DNA of 63,726 nt, filler included, from an uncultured Acidimicrobiia bacterium (GCA_964347285.1; 7 parts of 4 records of this genome joined end to end with filler, not necessarily neighbours in it); one strand, 5' to 3'; shown: positions 39,001 through 45,000, counted from the first letter of the whole stretch. Made by a program: the numbers.

Positions 39001-42000
39001 GCGCTCCTCTTGGCCAAAGGCCCGGACGACGCGACCCGAGGTGAGCACCTCCTGGGCCACCGACAGAGTCGAGCTTTCCAGCTTCTTCAACCGGCGCGAC
39101 TGGCGGCGCAGCCGGAGTCGATACATGCGCACGATGATGAAGTGGATGGGCGACACAGCCAGGGCAACCAGGGCCAATTGCCGATCGAGCCGGAAGGTGA
39201 CGTACAACATCGAGACGAGCGTTATCGCCGCAGTGAGAAAGGGAATGACGCCATCGATGACGATGTAGCGGATGGCCGAGCCGTCGTATTGGATGCGATA
39301 GGTGGAATCGGCTGTGCCTTTGGAGTCGTGGTAGGGCAGCGAAAGGTGCTGAATATGGCCGAAGAGTTGGGTCCGAAAACCGACGACCAGCTTTTCCCCC
39401 GTATAGGTGCTGAGCAGTGAACTTCCGACTACCTGGAGCTGTTTCAAGAGGGCGATGACTATGAGCAGCACCGCAGCCATGGCCAGCAACCCCGCATCGG
39501 AGTCCACGATCGACGAAGGCACCAGCGATTCCAAGAGAGCCGGCGGCGGCTTGTCGCCTATCACGCTGTCGACGGCTATTGCCAGCGGAACGGGGGCGAG
39601 CAGCGACAGAGGCGTGGCCAGAAGGCCCAGCAAGAAGATGCCCAGGATGTGGAACCAAAAGGGTCGGGTCCGTCGTAGCAGCCGCCGGTACAGGGTGAGG
39701 TCCGTGTAGCCCATCGGATCAGTTGCTCATCCGGCGGAACCGTTGCGTTCCCGAACCGCGATCTTCGACGGCCACGGCCGAGCCCAACAATCCACCCCCC
39801 GACTTCCAGGTCCTGCCCATCGTAGTCGGCCTCGGCTGAGACGACCACGCTCTGTGCCCGAAAGGCTGCGGCGACAGGTACGTAATCCGCTGTGGCGTGA
39901 TCAGGCGCACGTCCCTGCGTTGCCTTTCGGGGTCGGGCGCCGGGCGCCCCAACTTCGTATCCTGCATTCTCCATGGAGGTCGATGCTCCCGACGCCACGG
40001 CCAGGCGCCACGCCCGCACCGTCCTCGGCCGCCTCAAGAGGCGTTACCCCACCATCCACACCGCCCTCCATCACCGCGATCCGTGGGAGCTCCTCGTGGC
40101 CACGGTCATCTCGGCCCAGACCACCGATGAGAACGTCAACGCGGTCACCCCGGAGCTGTTCCGCCGGTGGCCCACGCCGGCCGAACTGGCCGGGGCCGAT
40201 CCCGAGGAGGTGGAGCGGGTCATCTACTCGACCGGCTTCTACCGGCAGAAGACGCGCTCGATCATCCATCTGTCGGAAGATCTGGTCGNNNNNNNNNNNN
40301 NNNNNNNNNNNNNNNNNNNNNNNNNNNNNNNNTTAATTAATTAANNNNNNNNNNNNNNNNNNNNNNNNNNNNNNNNNNNNNNNNNNNNACCAGCAGCAGC
40401 GCCACCACCCCCACCACCGCCGCCGGGAACAGGACCAAGCCGGTGATTCGAGCCACCCGCCGGCTTCCCAGGGCAAGCACCAGCCCGCCCTTGACGGCGG
40501 TGTTGACCGCAACGGCCGCCAGGACGGCCCGCGCCGCCGAGGTGGGATCCAGCCCGTCCCGCACCAGGTTGGCCATAGACAGGGTGATGGCGTCGACGTC
40601 GTTGATGCCGCTGACCGCACCCACGGCCACCAGCGAGGCGTCCGAGACCCGATCGAGCAGCAATGCCGAGATGAAGACGATCAGGGCGTACAGGGCGCCG
40701 AACTGGAGGGCGATCCCCAGGGTCAGCGGGTTGCGAAACCGGGGACCTTCTTCGTCAGACGTGCCCCCGGCCGCGGGCCGCCACAGCCACCACACCGCCA
40801 CGCCGGCGACCATCACGAACAGCAGCGCCAGCGGAACTGCCAGCTCCCGGGCCAGGTCGGGCGCCACCACCTGGGCCTCGACGAAGACCCGCGGATACAT
40901 GATCGCCGAGGCGCCGAGGATCCCGCCGGTGAGCGCCGCCCGCAAGCCGCGCTCGGCCTTCGACATACGGCTGAATCCCAGGGTGACGGCGGTCGACGAT
41001 ACGAGGCCGCCGGTCACGCCGGTCAGCCCCAGTCCCCGCGAGCCGAACAGACGCACCGAGACGTAGCCGACCAGGCCGATGCCCGACACGAACACGACCA
41101 TCAGCCAGGTCTCAAACGGGTTGAACGCCTCGAGCGGTCCGAAGTCCTCGTTGGGAACTAGGGGCAGGATGACGGCCGAGATCACTCCGAACTGGAGGAC
41201 GGCCCGGACGTCCTCGTCCGAGAACCGCGCCGAGAGTTGGTGAAGGTACTCCTTGGACCGCAGCAGCGCCGCAGTGCCCACGGCCAGCGCCGAGGCCACC
41301 ACCAGTTCCTCGGCCCACGCCAGCACCCCCACCACGTACACGATCACCGCCGCCGCTTCGGTCGTGGTCCCCCAGTCGCTGGTCCGCTGGGAACCGACGA
41401 CGTAGGCGGCGATGAGCAGCCCCGCATACGCCAGCGTGGATGCGATGAACGCGCCGTTGCCGTAGCGGTCGCCGAAGAAGGCGGCTGCGGCGCCCCAGAG
41501 CCCGTAGAAGGCAAAGGTGCGGGCGCCGGCGTACGTGGCCGTTTCCTCCCGTCCCAGCTGGCGCTCGAGACCTACCGCGGCGCCGAGGCCGGCGGCGGCG
41601 AGGAAGGCGACGACGATCTCGCCCGTCGTCTCCATGTCGCCAACTTACACCCGGTCCCCTCAGACCACCCGGGCTGGAAGTCCCGCTGTGCCCGCCGATG
41701 GCCTAGCGTGGCGGGCGCGAGAGGGCCCCGTGAGCAACCACACCGACGCCCCAGAGCCGGGCGACACCGCCTGGTACCGGATCGATCCGGGCGACATGGA
41801 GCCCGGTTCGGTCACGATGGTGGTGGTGGCCGATCGGGCGCTTGCCGTGAGCCGAACCGCCGACGGGAGCTGGGGTGTCCTCGACAACCGCTGCCCGCAC
41901 CAGGGCGGCCCGCTGGGCGAGGGCCAGATCGAGAACGGCTGCCTGATCTGCCCCTGGCACGGCTACGAGTACGACCCAGTCGACGGACAACCGCCGGGCG

Positions 42001-45000
42001 GCTACGACGATTGGGCCACCGCCTACCGCGTGGAAGAGCGCCCGGACGGGTTGTACGTCGAGCTCCCGGTGCCGCTGGAGCGGGTCACGCTCATGGATCA
42101 GATGGTCGAGGTGATGACGGACTGGGGAGTCGACACCGTATTCGGGATGGTGGGGCACTCCAACCTGGGCCTGGCCGAGGCGATGCGCAAGGCCGAGGAC
42201 AAGGACCGCCTCACCTACATCGGCATCCGCCACGAAGGGGCGGCCGCGTTTGCCGCCAGCGCCTACGCCAAGTTGACCGGCCGCCCGGCCGCCTGCTTCT
42301 CGATCGCCGGGCCGGGCGCCACTAACCTCCTCACCGGTTTGTGGGATGCCCGGGTCGACCGGGTACCGATCCTCGCCCTGACCGGCCAGATCCAGACCCA
42401 GGTGCTCGGTCCGGGCGCATTTCAGGAGATCCCCCTGGGGGCCGCATTCGAAGCGGTGAGCGAATGGAGCCAGACCGTGCTCGCCGCCGAGAACGCCACC
42501 GAGCTGATGGCGCTGGCCCTCAAGCACGCCATCGTTGAGCGGGACGTCGCCCACCTGATATTTCCCGACGAGGTGCAGGAACGGCCCGGCCTGGACAACC
42601 CCCCGCCCCGGCCCAGGGAGGGCCGGCTCGCCCAGACCGAGATCGCCCCTCAGTCGGAGGAGCTGGCCCGGGCCGTCGACCTGCTCACCGGGGCCGAGCG
42701 GCCGGTGATCATCGCCGGCAACGGCGCTCGACCGTTCGCCGACGAGATCATCCGGCTGGCCGAGCAGATCGATACCCCGGTGATCACCACCTTCAAGGCC
42801 AAGGGCCTCCTCAACGACGACCATCCGCTCGCCTGCGGGGTGCTGGGACGGTCGGGGACCCCGGTGGGATCGGCGGTGATGGGCCGCAGCGATGCGCTGC
42901 TGGTAGTGGGGGCATCGTTCTCCAACCACACCGGCATATCCCAGAACAAGCCGACCATCCAGATCGACTTCGACCGCATGATGCTGGGCAAGTTTCATCC
43001 GGTCGACATACCGCTGTGGGGGGAGATCGGCCGGACGCTGGAGCTCCTGTGCGACGCCCTTCCCTCCCGGGAACGGCCCGCGCAGCGCGACGACATAACC
43101 CGCCGCCGGGCCCGGTGGCGGGCCGAAAAGGAGAAGCGGGCCCACAAGACCGACCCCATGGGCCGCATGCACCCGGCCGCCCTCTTCGCAGTCCTGGGTG
43201 AGGTCGTGCCGGAGGATGCGGTGATGCCGGTCGACGTGGGCAACAACACCTATGCCTTCGGGCACTACTTCGAGTGCAAGCGCCAGGACGTGCTGATGTC
43301 CGGCTATCTGGGGTCCATCGGCTTCGCCTTCCCGGCGGCGATGGGGGCTTGGGCGGCCACCAACGGGTCGCGCAAGATCGTGTCGATCTCCGGCGACGGC
43401 GGGTTCGGCCAGTACATGGGCGAGTTCACCACCGCAGTCAAGTACGGCATGCCGATCACCCATGTGCTGCTCAACAACGACGAGCTGGGCAAGATCAGCC
43501 GGGAGCAGATCGGGGCCCTCCGCCCGGTGTGGCAGACCAGCCTGCACAACCCCGACTTTGCCGAATACGCCCGAATCTGTGGAGGGCAGGGCTTCCGGGT
43601 GAACGAGGTCGACGAGCTGGCCCCAGCCCTACGGGCGGCCCTGGCCGTCGAGGACGGGCCGACGCTCGTCGAAGTGCGCGTGTCGGCCCGAGACACGTGA
43701 GGTGGGCCGCCGCCGTCGCCCTGGTCGGTCTGGCGGCCGCCTGCGGGGATTCCTCGACCGGAGAGTCCGAGCCTGCGCCGGCGCCGGTCGAAGACACGAT
43801 CCCCGTCGACACCGGATCGGCGGCTGATGGCTGTGCCGACGTCATCGACGCCCGGGCGGAACGCCGGGAAGACGGCGGCTACGCCTTTGCGGTCACGGTG
43901 AGCTCNNNNNNNNNNNNNNNNNNNNNNNNNNNNNNNNNNNNNNNNNNNNTTAATTAATTAANNNNNNNNNNNNNNNNNNNNNNNNNNNNNNNNNNNNNNN
44001 NNNNNCGGACATTGGGACCGTCGTCGCCCCCACACGCCACCAGCGCCACGGCGAGTGCCAGTGCCGCCCCCGACCGGCCGAGCCGCCGAAACGGCGCGAC
44101 GGCGGAGACGGCGTGAACCCCCCAGCCCACATCAGGAGCCGGCATCATCTGGGGCAAACCCGGCGCCCGGCCTCACCGCCACGGACGGGGTGGGCTCGCC
44201 GAGCAGAAGCACGGCCGCCGGGCGGGGCAGCTGCTCCAATCGCCACGGAGGAACGCTGCTGGGCGCAATCGCGAAATAGGCGGCCACCATCCCGCCCACA
44301 AGGACCCGGCGCAGCTCCTCAAACCTGGGGCGGCTCACGGTAACTCCCGAATACCGACTTCAGCGCCGCCACCATCTCGCCCTGGGTGGCCCTGGCCCGG
44401 GCGGCTTCGACGAGGAGTGGCATAAGATTGCCCTCGCCCCGGGCCCCTTCACTGAGAGCGGCCAGCGTCGCGTCCACCCGGGTCTGATCGCGCCGGGAAC
44501 GCAGGTCGGCGAGACGACCCCGCTGGGCCTCCTCGACCTCGGCACCAATGCGGAGGATCTCCAGCTCGTCCTCGTCGTCGACGCTGTACGCGTTTACACC
44601 GACGATCGTGCGCTCCCCCGAGTTGACGGCCTTCTCGAACTCGTATGCGGAGTCGGCCAGAGCCGACTGGAACCATCCCTCGTCGATGCCGCGCAGCACT
44701 CCGGCCAGCATCGAGCCCTGCCCCATCCGCTCGATGGCGGAGAACAACTCCTCGGCTCTGGCCTCGATGCGGTCGGTCAGCTCCTCGACGTACCAGGCCC
44801 CTCCGAGCGGGTCGATCGTGTCGGCGACGCCGCTTTCGTCGGCGATGATCTGCTGGGTGCGGATGGCGATCTCGGCGGCGTGGGCGGAGGGCAAGGCATA
44901 CACCTCGTCGAGGGCGTTGGTGTGCAGGCTCTGCGTGCCTCCCAAGACCGCGGCCAGGGCTTCGAGGGCGGTACGCACGATGTTGTTCTCCGGCTGTTGC

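Follow-up and report, generated by a model that had tools for sequence, protein, structure and literature searches.

A Rieske–ThDP fusion enzyme of the pyruvate-oxidase superfamily that may deliver electrons to protein partners

INTRODUCTION

We describe here an enzyme in which an N-terminal Rieske [2Fe-2S] domain is fused to a complete, three-domain ThDP enzyme of the pyruvate-oxidase (POX) superfamily. Its gene lies in a stretch of DNA of 63,726 nucleotides, filler included (referred to below as ‘the window’), from an uncultured Acidimicrobiia bacterium. On balance, we think it likely that the protein is a soluble, ThDP-dependent and probably FAD-containing 2-oxo-acid dehydrogenase, the electrons of which leave by way of its own Rieske centre to a protein acceptor. 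Electrons from the 2-oxo acid would probably pass to partner proteins, then, and not to oxygen or a membrane quinone; pyruvate is the most likely substrate. A role in electron carriage is supported by the exchange of one carrier domain for another at the N-terminus, by the recurrence of a glutamate-synthase-like (GltS-like) companion enzyme, and by N-terminal carriers that mirror one another in the two proteins. The first-pass annotation of this DNA had found no description of the cofactor line-up, and our literature searches likewise gave no paper on it or on the Rieske–ThDP family.

GENE AND DOMAIN ORGANIZATION

The gene starts with GTG at 41730 and is free of stops to 43700, giving a protein of 656 amino acids (aa). 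A contig search matches it at 100% to G000:C3:1342-3309; the window holds the first 3517 bases of this 68,596-base contig. A Shine–Dalgarno-like sequence precedes the GTG, the divergent gene upstream ends at 41635, and the lengths of the 120 homologues listed (626-672 aa, 70-83% identity) are compatible with this start. Translation and Pfam bear out the intact open frame, Rieske plus three ThDP domains, that had been proposed earlier. The domains and their limits are the same, the Pfam E-values differ slightly, and all 120 homologues do indeed carry PF00355 together with the three ThDP domains.

41719..41725, + strand: GAGAGGG, purine-rich and Shine–Dalgarno-like, 4 nt before the GTG (read from the sequence)
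41730..43700, + strand: whole gene, Rieske domain fused to ThDP enzyme, 656 aa (open frame, four Pfam domains)
41787..41990, + strand: Rieske [2Fe-2S] domain, aa 20-87 (PF00355, 1e-14, 54.6 bits)
41892..41900, + strand: first cluster-binding loop, C55-P-H57 (C55 and H57 invariant, 58/58)
41949..41960, + strand: second cluster-binding loop, C74-P-W-H77 (C74, P75, W76 and H77 invariant, 58/58)
42087..42431, + strand: ThDP enzyme N-terminal (Pyr) domain, aa 120-234 (PF02776, TPP_enzyme_N, 1.8e-33)
42234-42236, + strand: codon of the cofactor-activating Glu169 (invariant; in an RHE motif common to POX-like sequences)
42666..43046, + strand: central domain, aa 313-439 (PF00205, TPP_enzyme_M, 2.4e-32)
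43233..43676, + strand: ThDP enzyme C-terminal (PP) domain, aa 502-649 (PF02775, TPP_enzyme_C, 5.9e-33)
43392-43478, + strand: GDG...NN metal/diphosphate motif, aa 555-583 (G555, D556 and G557 invariant; N583 nearly so)

THE RIESKE DOMAIN

The Rieske domain scores well above the PF00355 gathering threshold of 20.3 bits. The cluster ligands named in the first-pass annotation—C55, H57, C74 and H77—are present, and unchanged in all 58 aligned family members. Their arrangement, C55-P-H57 and C74-P-W-H77 separated by 16 residues, is that of Rieske proteins (C-x-H...C-x-x-H, with a gap of ~15-17), and the motif CPHQGGPL recurs across related loci. High-potential Rieske proteins of the bc1/b6f type have two further cysteines (C-x-H-x-G-C ... 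C-x-C-H), linked as a disulfide next to the cluster. The loops here, CPHQGG and CPWH, have no such cysteines, which sets the domain apart from this type; a QcrA-like protein of the same genome keeps CVHLGC...CPCHGS. The closest solved relatives of the domain are Rieske oxygenases and Rieske ferredoxins (SxtT/SxtDIOX, DdmC, CarAc and 3d89), and bc1 Rieske structures are the weakest among the matches listed.

THE ThDP CORE

The remainder of the protein has the features of the POX/ALS (‘DC’) superfamily: three Pfam domains far above their cut-offs, E169, and GDG-x(24-27)-NN. A search of the PDB matched 160 sequences. All of the 60 listed align only from residue 116 onward, and so none of these covers the Rieske part; the best is Escherichia coli PoxB (3ey9, E 1.5e-68, query 125-653 against PoxB 9-529). 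The POX-type ‘I-x-x-E-Q’ segment is kept, with E592 invariant and Q593 following it.

In PoxB and POX, the central domain is the one that binds FAD; here it can be aligned gap-free with PoxB 210-312. Invariant within it, in 58 sequences, are G330, G332, G373-R374-S375-G376, D388, S396, F397 and D413. G373-G376, S396-F397 and D413, all conserved or invariant, align with PoxB 251-254, 274-278 and D292, which contact FAD. From these aligned motifs, the domain probably binds FAD. Acetolactate synthases (ALS) bind FAD too, and make no redox use of it.

Which member of the superfamily this is, is less easily said. None of the 25 NCBIfam models among the matches listed reaches its cut-off. The top model, PRK08611 ‘pyruvate oxidase’, scores 409.6 bits against a cut-off of 742, and the PoxB model, PRK09124, 313.4 against 792. 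TIGR02720 (H2O2-forming pyruvate oxidase, SpxB/LpPOX) scores 301 against 637.85, and TIGR00118 (acetolactate synthase large subunit) 282.3 against 538.35. We therefore rejected YdaP-like PRK08611, SpxB/LpPOX-type pyruvate oxidase (EC 1.2.3.3) and acetolactate synthase, each of them below its equivalog cut-off, as identities for the protein. PoxB/PQO (EC 1.2.5.1) was rejected as well, on the PRK09124 score, the missing C-terminal tail and the loss of Phe465. The first-pass annotation had placed the enzyme in the ‘YdaP/PoxB branch’. The PDB search and NCBIfam agree that PoxB and pyruvate oxidase are nearest to the core, but the label overstates membership, since no NCBIfam cut-off is reached and the enzyme belongs to a strongly supported clade of its own, separate from the long-tailed PoxB-like sequences.

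Two departures from PoxB stand out in the residue-by-residue alignment:

43491..43493, + strand: codon of Lys588, at the position of PoxB Phe465
43677..43700, + strand: C-terminus, 7 residues past the PP domain, without a PoxB-type membrane-binding tail

Lys588 stands where POX has a hydrophobic residue after ‘LG’. Of 58 family sequences, at least 90% retain this lysine, which is specific to the Rieske clade and two rubredoxin-fused sequences (P0128 and P0132). Phe465 of PoxB is reported to move into the active site and to speed the transfer of electrons from ThDP to FAD (PMC7245740, in excerpt), and so with lysine in its place this step may differ, or be missing. As for the tail, the alignment stops at residue 529 of PoxB's 572, and our protein ends three residues further on. 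The residues that follow the core number 2-13 in Rieske- and rubredoxin-fused representatives versus 30-63 in most PoxB-like sequences. In PoxB, the lipid-activation helix, or membrane-binding tail, comprises aa 558-568 (PMC7245740, in excerpt).

FAMILY SPREAD AND EXCHANGE OF CARRIER DOMAINS

Relatives occur in at least 579 species genomes. The ThDP catalytic motifs and the four Rieske ligands are retained in the 58 aligned sequences, N583 being nearly invariant. When 71 cores were placed in a tree, all 15 Rieske-fused sequences and two rubredoxin-fused ones grouped in a single clade (SH-aLRT support 100%); three further rubredoxin-fused sequences and short-tailed, unfused ones are adjacent to it. 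Rubredoxin occupies the N-terminal position of the Rieske domain in these sister lineages, and in some subfamilies two CDGSH motifs, or a CDGSH-Fer4_19-CDGSH module, precede the Rieske domain. This one end of the enzyme thus accommodates no fewer than four kinds of one-electron metal centre. By the taxon names of their records, rubredoxin-fused and unfused close relatives are present in methanogens and Bathyarchaeia, lineages that presumably live anaerobically, without O2 or ubiquinone.

A GLUTAMATE-SYNTHASE-LIKE COMPANION

Most neighbourhoods of the ThDP gene consist of housekeeping genes, with no redox partner. A GltS-like FMN enzyme is nonetheless found repeatedly beside members of the clade, in both Bacteria and Archaea: a gene with a Glu_synthase domain (PF01645) adjoins the ThDP gene at 12/80 Rieske, 16/17 unfused archaeal and 2/14 rubredoxin-fused loci. 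The companion aligns with positions 864-1173 of the GltB profile, without the amidotransferase and GXGXG domains. Its N-terminus mirrors that of the ThDP enzyme: a Rieske domain in one goes with a Rieske domain in the other, a CDGSH module likewise with a CDGSH module, and where one has no carrier the other has none either. A Rieske motif is present in the companion at 10 of the 12 Rieske loci (the two exceptions are a gene truncated at a contig end and a fragment). The N-terminus is plain at the unfused archaeal loci L103 and L112, where it was read, and the other 14 unfused archaeal companions are 74-95% matches to this protein of 411 aa. The ThDP enzyme and the companion of one genome, G039, have CDGSH-Fer4_19-CDGSH modules that share 49% identity (E 2e-71). 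The companion at locus L123 has DUF2769 at its N-terminus, and its relative at L129 has the same Cys-rich N-terminus. A C-x5-C-x4-C motif, which we take to be the [3Fe-4S] site where glutamate synthase takes up electrons, is kept in 9/9 companions checked.

The Rieske-GltS-like gene occurs in 23 of 50 genomes that carry the ThDP gene, and was not found in 24. In a sample of 201 genomes of the phylum, it occurs in 2/9 carriers versus 1/192 non-carriers (Fisher p = 0.005, though related genomes are not independent), and was not found in the other 7 carriers. Nor was it found in the present genome (90.5% complete), where the sole match is a canonical GltB of 1497 aa, and the ~245-aa third open frame of the trio was likewise not found. 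For these reasons, the companion cannot be the general acceptor, and the acceptor here is not assignable to it. The same genome already yields four hits each for E2-type proteins of 2-oxoacid dehydrogenase complexes and for POR_N of 2-oxoacid:ferredoxin oxidoreductases, so that the physiological need for the Rieske–ThDP enzyme is not evident. Acetate kinase was not found in this 90.5% complete genome, and none of its five Rieske hits is a Rieske oxygenase.

PROPOSED FUNCTION

PoxB passes its electrons to membrane quinone with the help of its C-terminal lipid-binding tail, and POX passes them to O2. For the Rieske–ThDP enzyme we infer another route, from substrate and flavin to product, direction of flow and acceptor. 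The 2-oxo acid would be decarboxylated on ThDP, and the resulting hydroxyethyl-ThDP would give up its two electrons to a flavin in the central domain. From there they would depart singly, through the low-potential Rieske [2Fe-2S] centre at the N-terminus, to another protein as acceptor. For about half of the carrier genomes that were searched, the GltS-like FMN enzyme, with its matching carrier and the Cys motif expected for [3Fe-4S], is the likely candidate. The first-pass annotation had suggested a 2-oxo-acid oxidase with a built-in electron exit to a protein or membrane acceptor. The exit is well supported by comparison (invariant ligands, carrier swaps, tail loss); ‘oxidase’ and ‘membrane acceptor’ are without support, and the sole recurrent partner, not found in this genome, is a soluble GltS-like flavoenzyme.

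Other explanations deserve consideration. The protein might be a non-redox ThDP carboligase or lyase akin to acetolactate synthase, glyoxylate carboligase or sulfoacetaldehyde acetyltransferase, with a vestigial flavin, if any, and a Rieske domain for regulation, redox sensing or assembly. The loss of PoxB's electron-transfer Phe and the want of a fixed acceptor gene in the neighbourhoods examined would fit, as would a TIGR00118 score of 282 bits versus 409 for the best POX model, all below cut-off. We nevertheless regard this as unlikely: the best profile and solved-structure matches are redox enzymes (PoxB/POX), the POX-type E592 segment is invariant, and if the Rieske domain were purely regulatory, its replacement or extension by rubredoxin, CDGSH and Fer4_19 would be hard to explain, as would the company of a flavoenzyme that has a matching carrier and a Cys motif of the [3Fe-4S] type. 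We give similarly little credence to the view that the protein is a conventional pyruvate oxidase or pyruvate:quinone oxidoreductase, with O2 or quinone reduced at its flavin and the Rieske centre serving as a side store or switch (e.g. for limiting H2O2, or redox gating). Its PoxB/POX-type core would fit, as would the solitary occurrence of the gene in most genomes, and a tail-less core could be active, since C-terminal truncation raises the basal activity of PoxB-type enzymes (PMC7245740, in excerpt). Against this, the lipid-binding tail that couples PoxB to quinone is missing, rows of as many as four metal modules resemble wires rather than switches, and close relatives, both rubredoxin-fused and unfused, are found in methanogens and Bathyarchaeia, presumably without O2 or ubiquinone to reduce.

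In PFOR, the electrons of ThDP radicals are taken up by iron-sulfur centres, and hydroxyethyl-ThDP might be oxidized here in the same way, in two one-electron steps and with no redox-active flavin. The near-invariant Lys in place of Phe465, the ThDP-to-FAD enhancer of PoxB (PMC7245740, in excerpt), speaks for such a course. Yet the invariance of G373-G376, S396-F397 and D413, presumed FAD contacts by alignment, speaks against it, and nothing indicates that the Rieske domain reaches the buried ThDP site; we consider it quite improbable. More improbable still, in our judgement, is that electrons flow inward, with a partner feeding the Rieske centre to drive a reductive ThDP/flavin reaction (e.g. 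reductive carboxylation). Carrier domains alone do not tell direction, and the GltS-like companion could, in principle, work oxidatively as a donor. However, disulfide-free Rieske ferredoxins have potentials far above that of the pyruvate/acetate couple, and we know of no ThDP/FAD enzyme of the POX/ALS superfamily that works reductively. In glutamate synthase, moreover, electrons enter through the [3Fe-4S] centre (PMC8097209, in excerpt).

COMPARISON WITH KNOWN SYSTEMS

PoxB (3EY9/3EYA), Corynebacterium glutamicum PQO and Staphylococcus aureus CidC have the same three-domain ThDP fold, catalytic Glu, GDG...NN motif and conserved central domain. Compared with PoxB, the Rieske–ThDP enzyme has an added N-terminal Rieske domain, no counterpart of residues ~530-572, Lys588 for Phe465, and a separate clade. 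Lactobacillus plantarum POX (1POX, 1Y9D) and SpxB share the fold, and the active-site segment that ends in E-Q (E592 and Q593 here). They differ from our enzyme in the absence of the Rieske domain and of Lys after ‘LG’, and TIGR02720, their model, scores it below cut-off; there is no sign in it of O2 as acceptor, or of acetyl phosphate as product.

The outline of the proposed reaction, oxidation of a 2-oxo acid on ThDP and exit of single electrons via protein-bound iron-sulfur, is that of PFOR/OFOR. PFOR has an unrelated domain organization, [4Fe-4S] clusters and no flavin, whereas the Rieske–ThDP enzyme belongs to the POX/ALS superfamily. In Rieske oxygenase systems, FAD reductases and their partners (e.g. 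CarAc and BphF) likewise convey single electrons from a flavoenzyme to a low-potential, disulfide-free Rieske centre; here the reductant would be a 2-oxo acid instead of NAD(P)H, and the reductase module a ThDP enzyme. For the pair of enzymes, NADPH-glutamate synthase (GltB-GltD) offers an analogy, in that an FMN/[3Fe-4S] module is fed by a separate flavin module via iron-sulfur (PMC8097209, in excerpt). The ThDP enzyme would take the place of GltD as donor, to a companion that, unlike GltB, has neither amidotransferase nor GXGXG domain.

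The gene and its surroundings

Translation of the window yields an uninterrupted frame of 656 amino acids, running on the + strand from a GTG start codon at 41730 to a stop at 43700, and inspection of the sequence places GAGAGGG 4 nt 5' of the start. The first-pass annotation had put a Rieske domain and a three-domain ThDP enzyme on this one protein. The four Pfam domains found, together with the cluster ligands C55-P-H57 and C74-P-W-H77, both present, bear this out.

Domains of the ThDP enzyme (Pfam) and features beside its gene
aa 20-87: Rieske, 1e-14
aa 120-234: TPP_enzyme_N, 1.8e-33
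aa 313-439: TPP_enzyme_M, 2.4e-32
aa 502-649: TPP_enzyme_C, 5.9e-33
window 40389-41635, - strand: MgtC/DUF4010 membrane protein (Pfam), divergent, upstream, cut by the contig start
L098 (contig C3 of this genome, G000) 4133-6655, - strand: 840-aa multihaem cytochrome c with c7, c3 and MtrC-like Pfam matches

The assembly comprises 2.63 Mb in 187 contigs (90.5% complete, 0.46% contaminated). Between 20931 and 45184 the window consists of contig pieces joined via paired 44-base N runs, and is not continuous sequence; the piece at 40389-43905 corresponds to the start of contig C3 (3517 of its 68,596 bases). The divergent MgtC/DUF4010 gene starts 94 nt from the start of the ThDP gene and does not recur beside it in the other loci compared. 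A promoter scan at the ThDP gene gave no match, and two terminator-like matches both lie within the gene, on the opposite strand. On the 3' side, C3 continues with a small lipoprotein-like ORF, an SdpI-like membrane protein, the convergent cytochrome and then housekeeping genes.

Family and conservation

All 120 close homologues listed (120/120) combine the Rieske domain with the three ThDP domains, and at least 579 relatives emerged when one genome per species was scanned. The best 80 of these comprise 43 from Actinomycetota (32 of them Acidimicrobiia), 15 from Pseudomonadota, 11 from Chloroflexota and one genome each from seven other phyla; many of the loci are metagenome bins, whose taxon labels may be wrong (e.g. 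the single 'Heimdallarchaeota' and 'Saprospiraceae' records). Within the phylum the gene occurs in nine of 201 evenly sampled genomes, among them four of the five others from the same order. Across 58 aligned members the four Rieske ligands, E169, G555-D556-G557 and E592 are invariant, and at least 90% of the members have K588. Residues of the central domain are also invariant (G330, G332, G373-G376, D388, S396, F397 and D413), and it is this motif conservation that suggests the protein binds a flavin.

Swapped and extended N-terminal carriers

When 1.84 billion representatives were searched without a profile, the closest proteins beyond the Rieske family were rubredoxin-fused ThDP enzymes and short unfused forms, 41-48% identical over the core. 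The CxxC...CPxC motif is intact in each of the rubredoxin-fused rows P0128, P0131, P0132, P0139 and P0153. A tree of 71 cores was built by quick search under LG+G4, without mixture models. In it, all 15 Rieske-fused rows form one clade with two rubredoxin-fused rows (100% SH-aLRT), and the neighbouring outer clade holds the remaining rubredoxin-fused rows and the short unfused rows. Rows whose C-terminal tails are PoxB-like (30-63 residues) mostly lie in other parts of the tree.

Proteobacterial and other members of the Rieske clade carry extra modules ahead of the Rieske domain. Proteins of about 750 aa have two CDGSH motifs there (loci L069, L077 and L080), and proteins of about 870 aa have a CDGSH-Fer4_19-CDGSH module (L047, L048, L051, L055, L057, L062, L074 and protein row P0122). 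Four unrelated kinds of one-electron metal centre thus share the N-terminal end of the same enzyme, and the carrier-fused forms lack the membrane tail. Such a pattern would be difficult to account for if the N-terminus did not carry electrons.

A glutamate-synthase-like companion

The neighbourhoods of the ThDP gene are mostly unconserved. One gene recurs; its product contains the glutamate synthase FMN domain (PF01645) and aligns to positions 864-1173 of the GltB profile. This companion adjoins the ThDP gene at 12 of the 80 Rieske loci (in Actinomycetota and Chloroflexota, plus one cyanobacterium and one spirochaete), in two of 14 rubredoxin-fused loci, and in 16 of 17 unfused archaeal loci, which come from closely related genomes and of which the seventeenth is cut at the gene.

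The N-terminus of the companion tracks that of the ThDP enzyme. At Rieske loci the companion has a Rieske motif in 10 of 12 cases; one of the remaining two is cut by a contig end and the other is a fragment. Companions of the unfused archaeal forms have no extra domain, as read from the N-termini in L103 and L112, and the other 14 match the 411-aa protein of these two loci at 74-95%. Beside the rubredoxin forms the companion has a Cys-rich N-terminus, recognized by Pfam as DUF2769 in L123; the relative at L129 shares this N-terminus. In one genome, G039, the companion carries a CDGSH-Fer4_19-CDGSH module 49% identical (E 2e-71) to that on the ThDP enzyme, the two genes lying on different contigs. 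The C-x5-C-x4-C motif, which we take to be the [3Fe-4S] site of GltB, is kept in nine of nine companions examined. In glutamate synthase this cluster is the electron entry point to FMN, according to the part of PMC8097209 available. The combination of CDGSH with Glu_synthase is itself a known bacterial architecture (PMC5859297, available in part), and the ThDP enzyme is absent from the available portion of that paper's text (TPP, thiamin and pyruvate each have 0 occurrences).

Of 50 carrier genomes, 23 have a Rieske-GltS-like gene. Within the sample of 201 genomes this gene is present in two of nine carriers versus one of 192 non-carriers (Fisher p = 0.005, a value that is overstated because related genomes are not independent). 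The companion was not found in this genome (90.5% complete), and the same goes for seven of the nine carriers of that sample, so it is a frequent partner, not an obligatory one.

In at least five loci a further ORF (about 245 aa) separates the gene for the Rieske-GltS-like protein from that for the Rieske-ThDP enzyme:

L013 9261-9998: ~245-aa ORF; also in L001, L004, L044, L045, L012 and L040

This ORF is unnamed and matches no Pfam or NCBIfam model. It is a real ORF whose GC content at third codon positions, 0.92, matches that of the neighbouring genes and is typical of real genes. It is conserved, with the motifs WPEHFD, YGASPGD and EPYLYV. Like the companion, it was not found in this genome. 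As a separate observation, in L123 and L129 (bins of Methanobacteriaceae and Methanomicrobiales) the rubredoxin-fused ThDP gene is followed by the gene for the DUF2769 and Glu_synthase protein and then by SelR, a methionine sulfoxide reductase B gene, an arrangement that might point to a connection with oxidative-stress repair in anaerobes.

Other redox genes and candidate partners

Rieske proteins are few in this genome. There are only five matches: the ThDP enzyme, a 176-aa frame, a QcrA-like subunit and the first two proteins listed below. None of the five is a Rieske oxygenase.

Redox genes elsewhere in this genome (G000)
L093 (contig C43) 1279-1809: small Rieske protein between SufD- and SufC-like ORFs (judged by translations only)
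L087 (contig C17) 1336-2988: Rieske-FNR fusion, 550 aa (Rieske + Pyr_redox_2 + Reductase_C)
L142 (contig C19) 2706-7196: canonical GltB, 1496 aa
L143 (contig C100) 2584-4089: best GltD-family match, 293 bits vs a cut-off of 447.7, on another contig than GltB

The genome also has four E2-type and four POR_N-type matches, and no match to acetate kinase at 90.5% completeness. No GltD-like gene lies on the GltB contig, C19; a GltB without an adjacent GltD gene is a lead only.

Other proteins were considered as partners of the ThDP enzyme and set aside. The multihaem cytochrome, convergent to the ThDP gene 0.8 kb downstream (outside the window piece) and with a C-terminal hydrophobic stretch, is a local feature: at none of 81 related loci is there a nearby ORF with at least three CxxCH motifs. 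The Rieske-FNR fusion shows no co-occurrence with the ThDP gene. Of the nine carriers in the 201-genome sample, this genome alone has a match extending over the Rieske part; so do nine non-carriers, in seven of which the match is probably two genes because a stop codon lies inside it. These nine non-carriers include G138 and G197, both flagged as unpublished, and the conclusion on co-occurrence is independent of those two. The neighbours shared among Acidimicrobiia, namely OmpA-like (15 of 81 loci), cupin (eight), ThiI (eight), DivIVA, PALP, TrmI and Pup ligase genes, look like conserved housekeeping synteny; the neighbours at rubredoxin-fused loci of Opitutales are likewise housekeeping genes, and nearly all proteobacterial ThDP loci are singleton neighbourhoods.

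Proposed mechanism

On the best-supported reading, a 2-oxo acid, most likely pyruvate, would be decarboxylated on ThDP, and two electrons would move on to the central-domain flavin. They would then exit singly through the Rieske centre to reach a protein acceptor, which would be the GltS-like FMN/[3Fe-4S] enzyme where it is present. The architecture, the invariant ligands and catalytic motifs, the missing membrane tail, the exchange and lengthening of the carriers and the neighbourhood link with its matched carriers are direct observations; flavin binding, substrate, product, direction of flow and acceptor in this scheme are what we infer.

It is possible, though less likely than not, that the ThDP enzyme is the electron-input half of an undescribed modular redox system, in which it would oxidise pyruvate or a different 2-oxo acid and feed the GltS-like FMN/[3Fe-4S] reductase via matched N-terminal metal domains. 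These domains would be swappable: a Rieske domain on one enzyme would face a Rieske domain on the other, a CDGSH-Fer4_19-CDGSH module would face its like, and rubredoxin would be matched by DUF2769. In genomes that lack the companion, such as this one, the ThDP enzyme may feed full-length GltB, or another acceptor. If the modular reading is true, a glutamate synthase or related imine reductase is driven directly by a 2-oxo acid, needing neither pyridine nucleotide nor free ferredoxin, in a system that spans methanogens to Actinomycetota. The matched carriers give two large uncharacterised families a concrete, testable hypothesis, one that would tie carbon oxidation directly to nitrogen assimilation or another reduction.

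Comparison with known enzymes

The Rieske part, taken in isolation, has its closest relatives among oxygenase Rieske domains and Rieske ferredoxins (SxtT, DdmC, CarAc and 3D89), and is only weakly similar to bc1 Rieske proteins. Unlike the QcrA-like protein of the same genome, it has no extra cysteine pair in its loops, a feature of the low-potential type. For the whole protein, the top NCBIfam models are PRK08611 pyruvate oxidase (409.6 bits), two pyruvate dehydrogenase models and PoxB PRK09124 (313.4 bits); all 25 models among the matches listed stay below their curated cut-offs (495 to 976 bits). Among the PDB matches listed, E. coli PoxB (3EY9/3EYA, E about 1e-68) ranks first as a solved relative and L. 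plantarum pyruvate oxidase comes next, and none of the best 60 of 160 PDB matches covers residues 1-115.

The alignment with PoxB stops at PoxB residue 529 of 572, and the 656-aa protein ends three residues on, so the C-terminal region of PoxB has no counterpart. As described in the available part of PMC7245740, that region includes the lipid-activation helix (558-568) and controls the active site, and activation shifts Phe465 into the active site with faster electron transfer between ThDP and FAD. Counted along the printed alignment, Lys588 lies opposite Phe465, and may provide a different ThDP-to-flavin contact in an enzyme without the autoinhibitory tail. Lys588 was ruled out as a sign of companion pairing, since the paired archaeal forms have Met.

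The available part of a review of iron-sulfur flavoenzymes (PMC8097209) has 0 occurrences of thiamine. We found no description of a ThDP enzyme bearing a Rieske, rubredoxin or CDGSH domain in the full-text literature, a scope that excludes most subscription journals and supplements, and the fused ORFs stand in public records under generic names only. To our knowledge, all characterised ThDP/FAD enzymes of the pyruvate oxidase type use O2 or membrane quinone as their electron acceptor. An enzyme that has an iron-sulfur exit of its own would add a third route of 2-oxo-acid oxidation to the lipoamide complexes and the oxygen-sensitive PFOR. It could supply abundant Acidimicrobiia, Chloroflexota and Proteobacteria of marine and sediment habitats with single low-potential electrons while tolerating oxygen.
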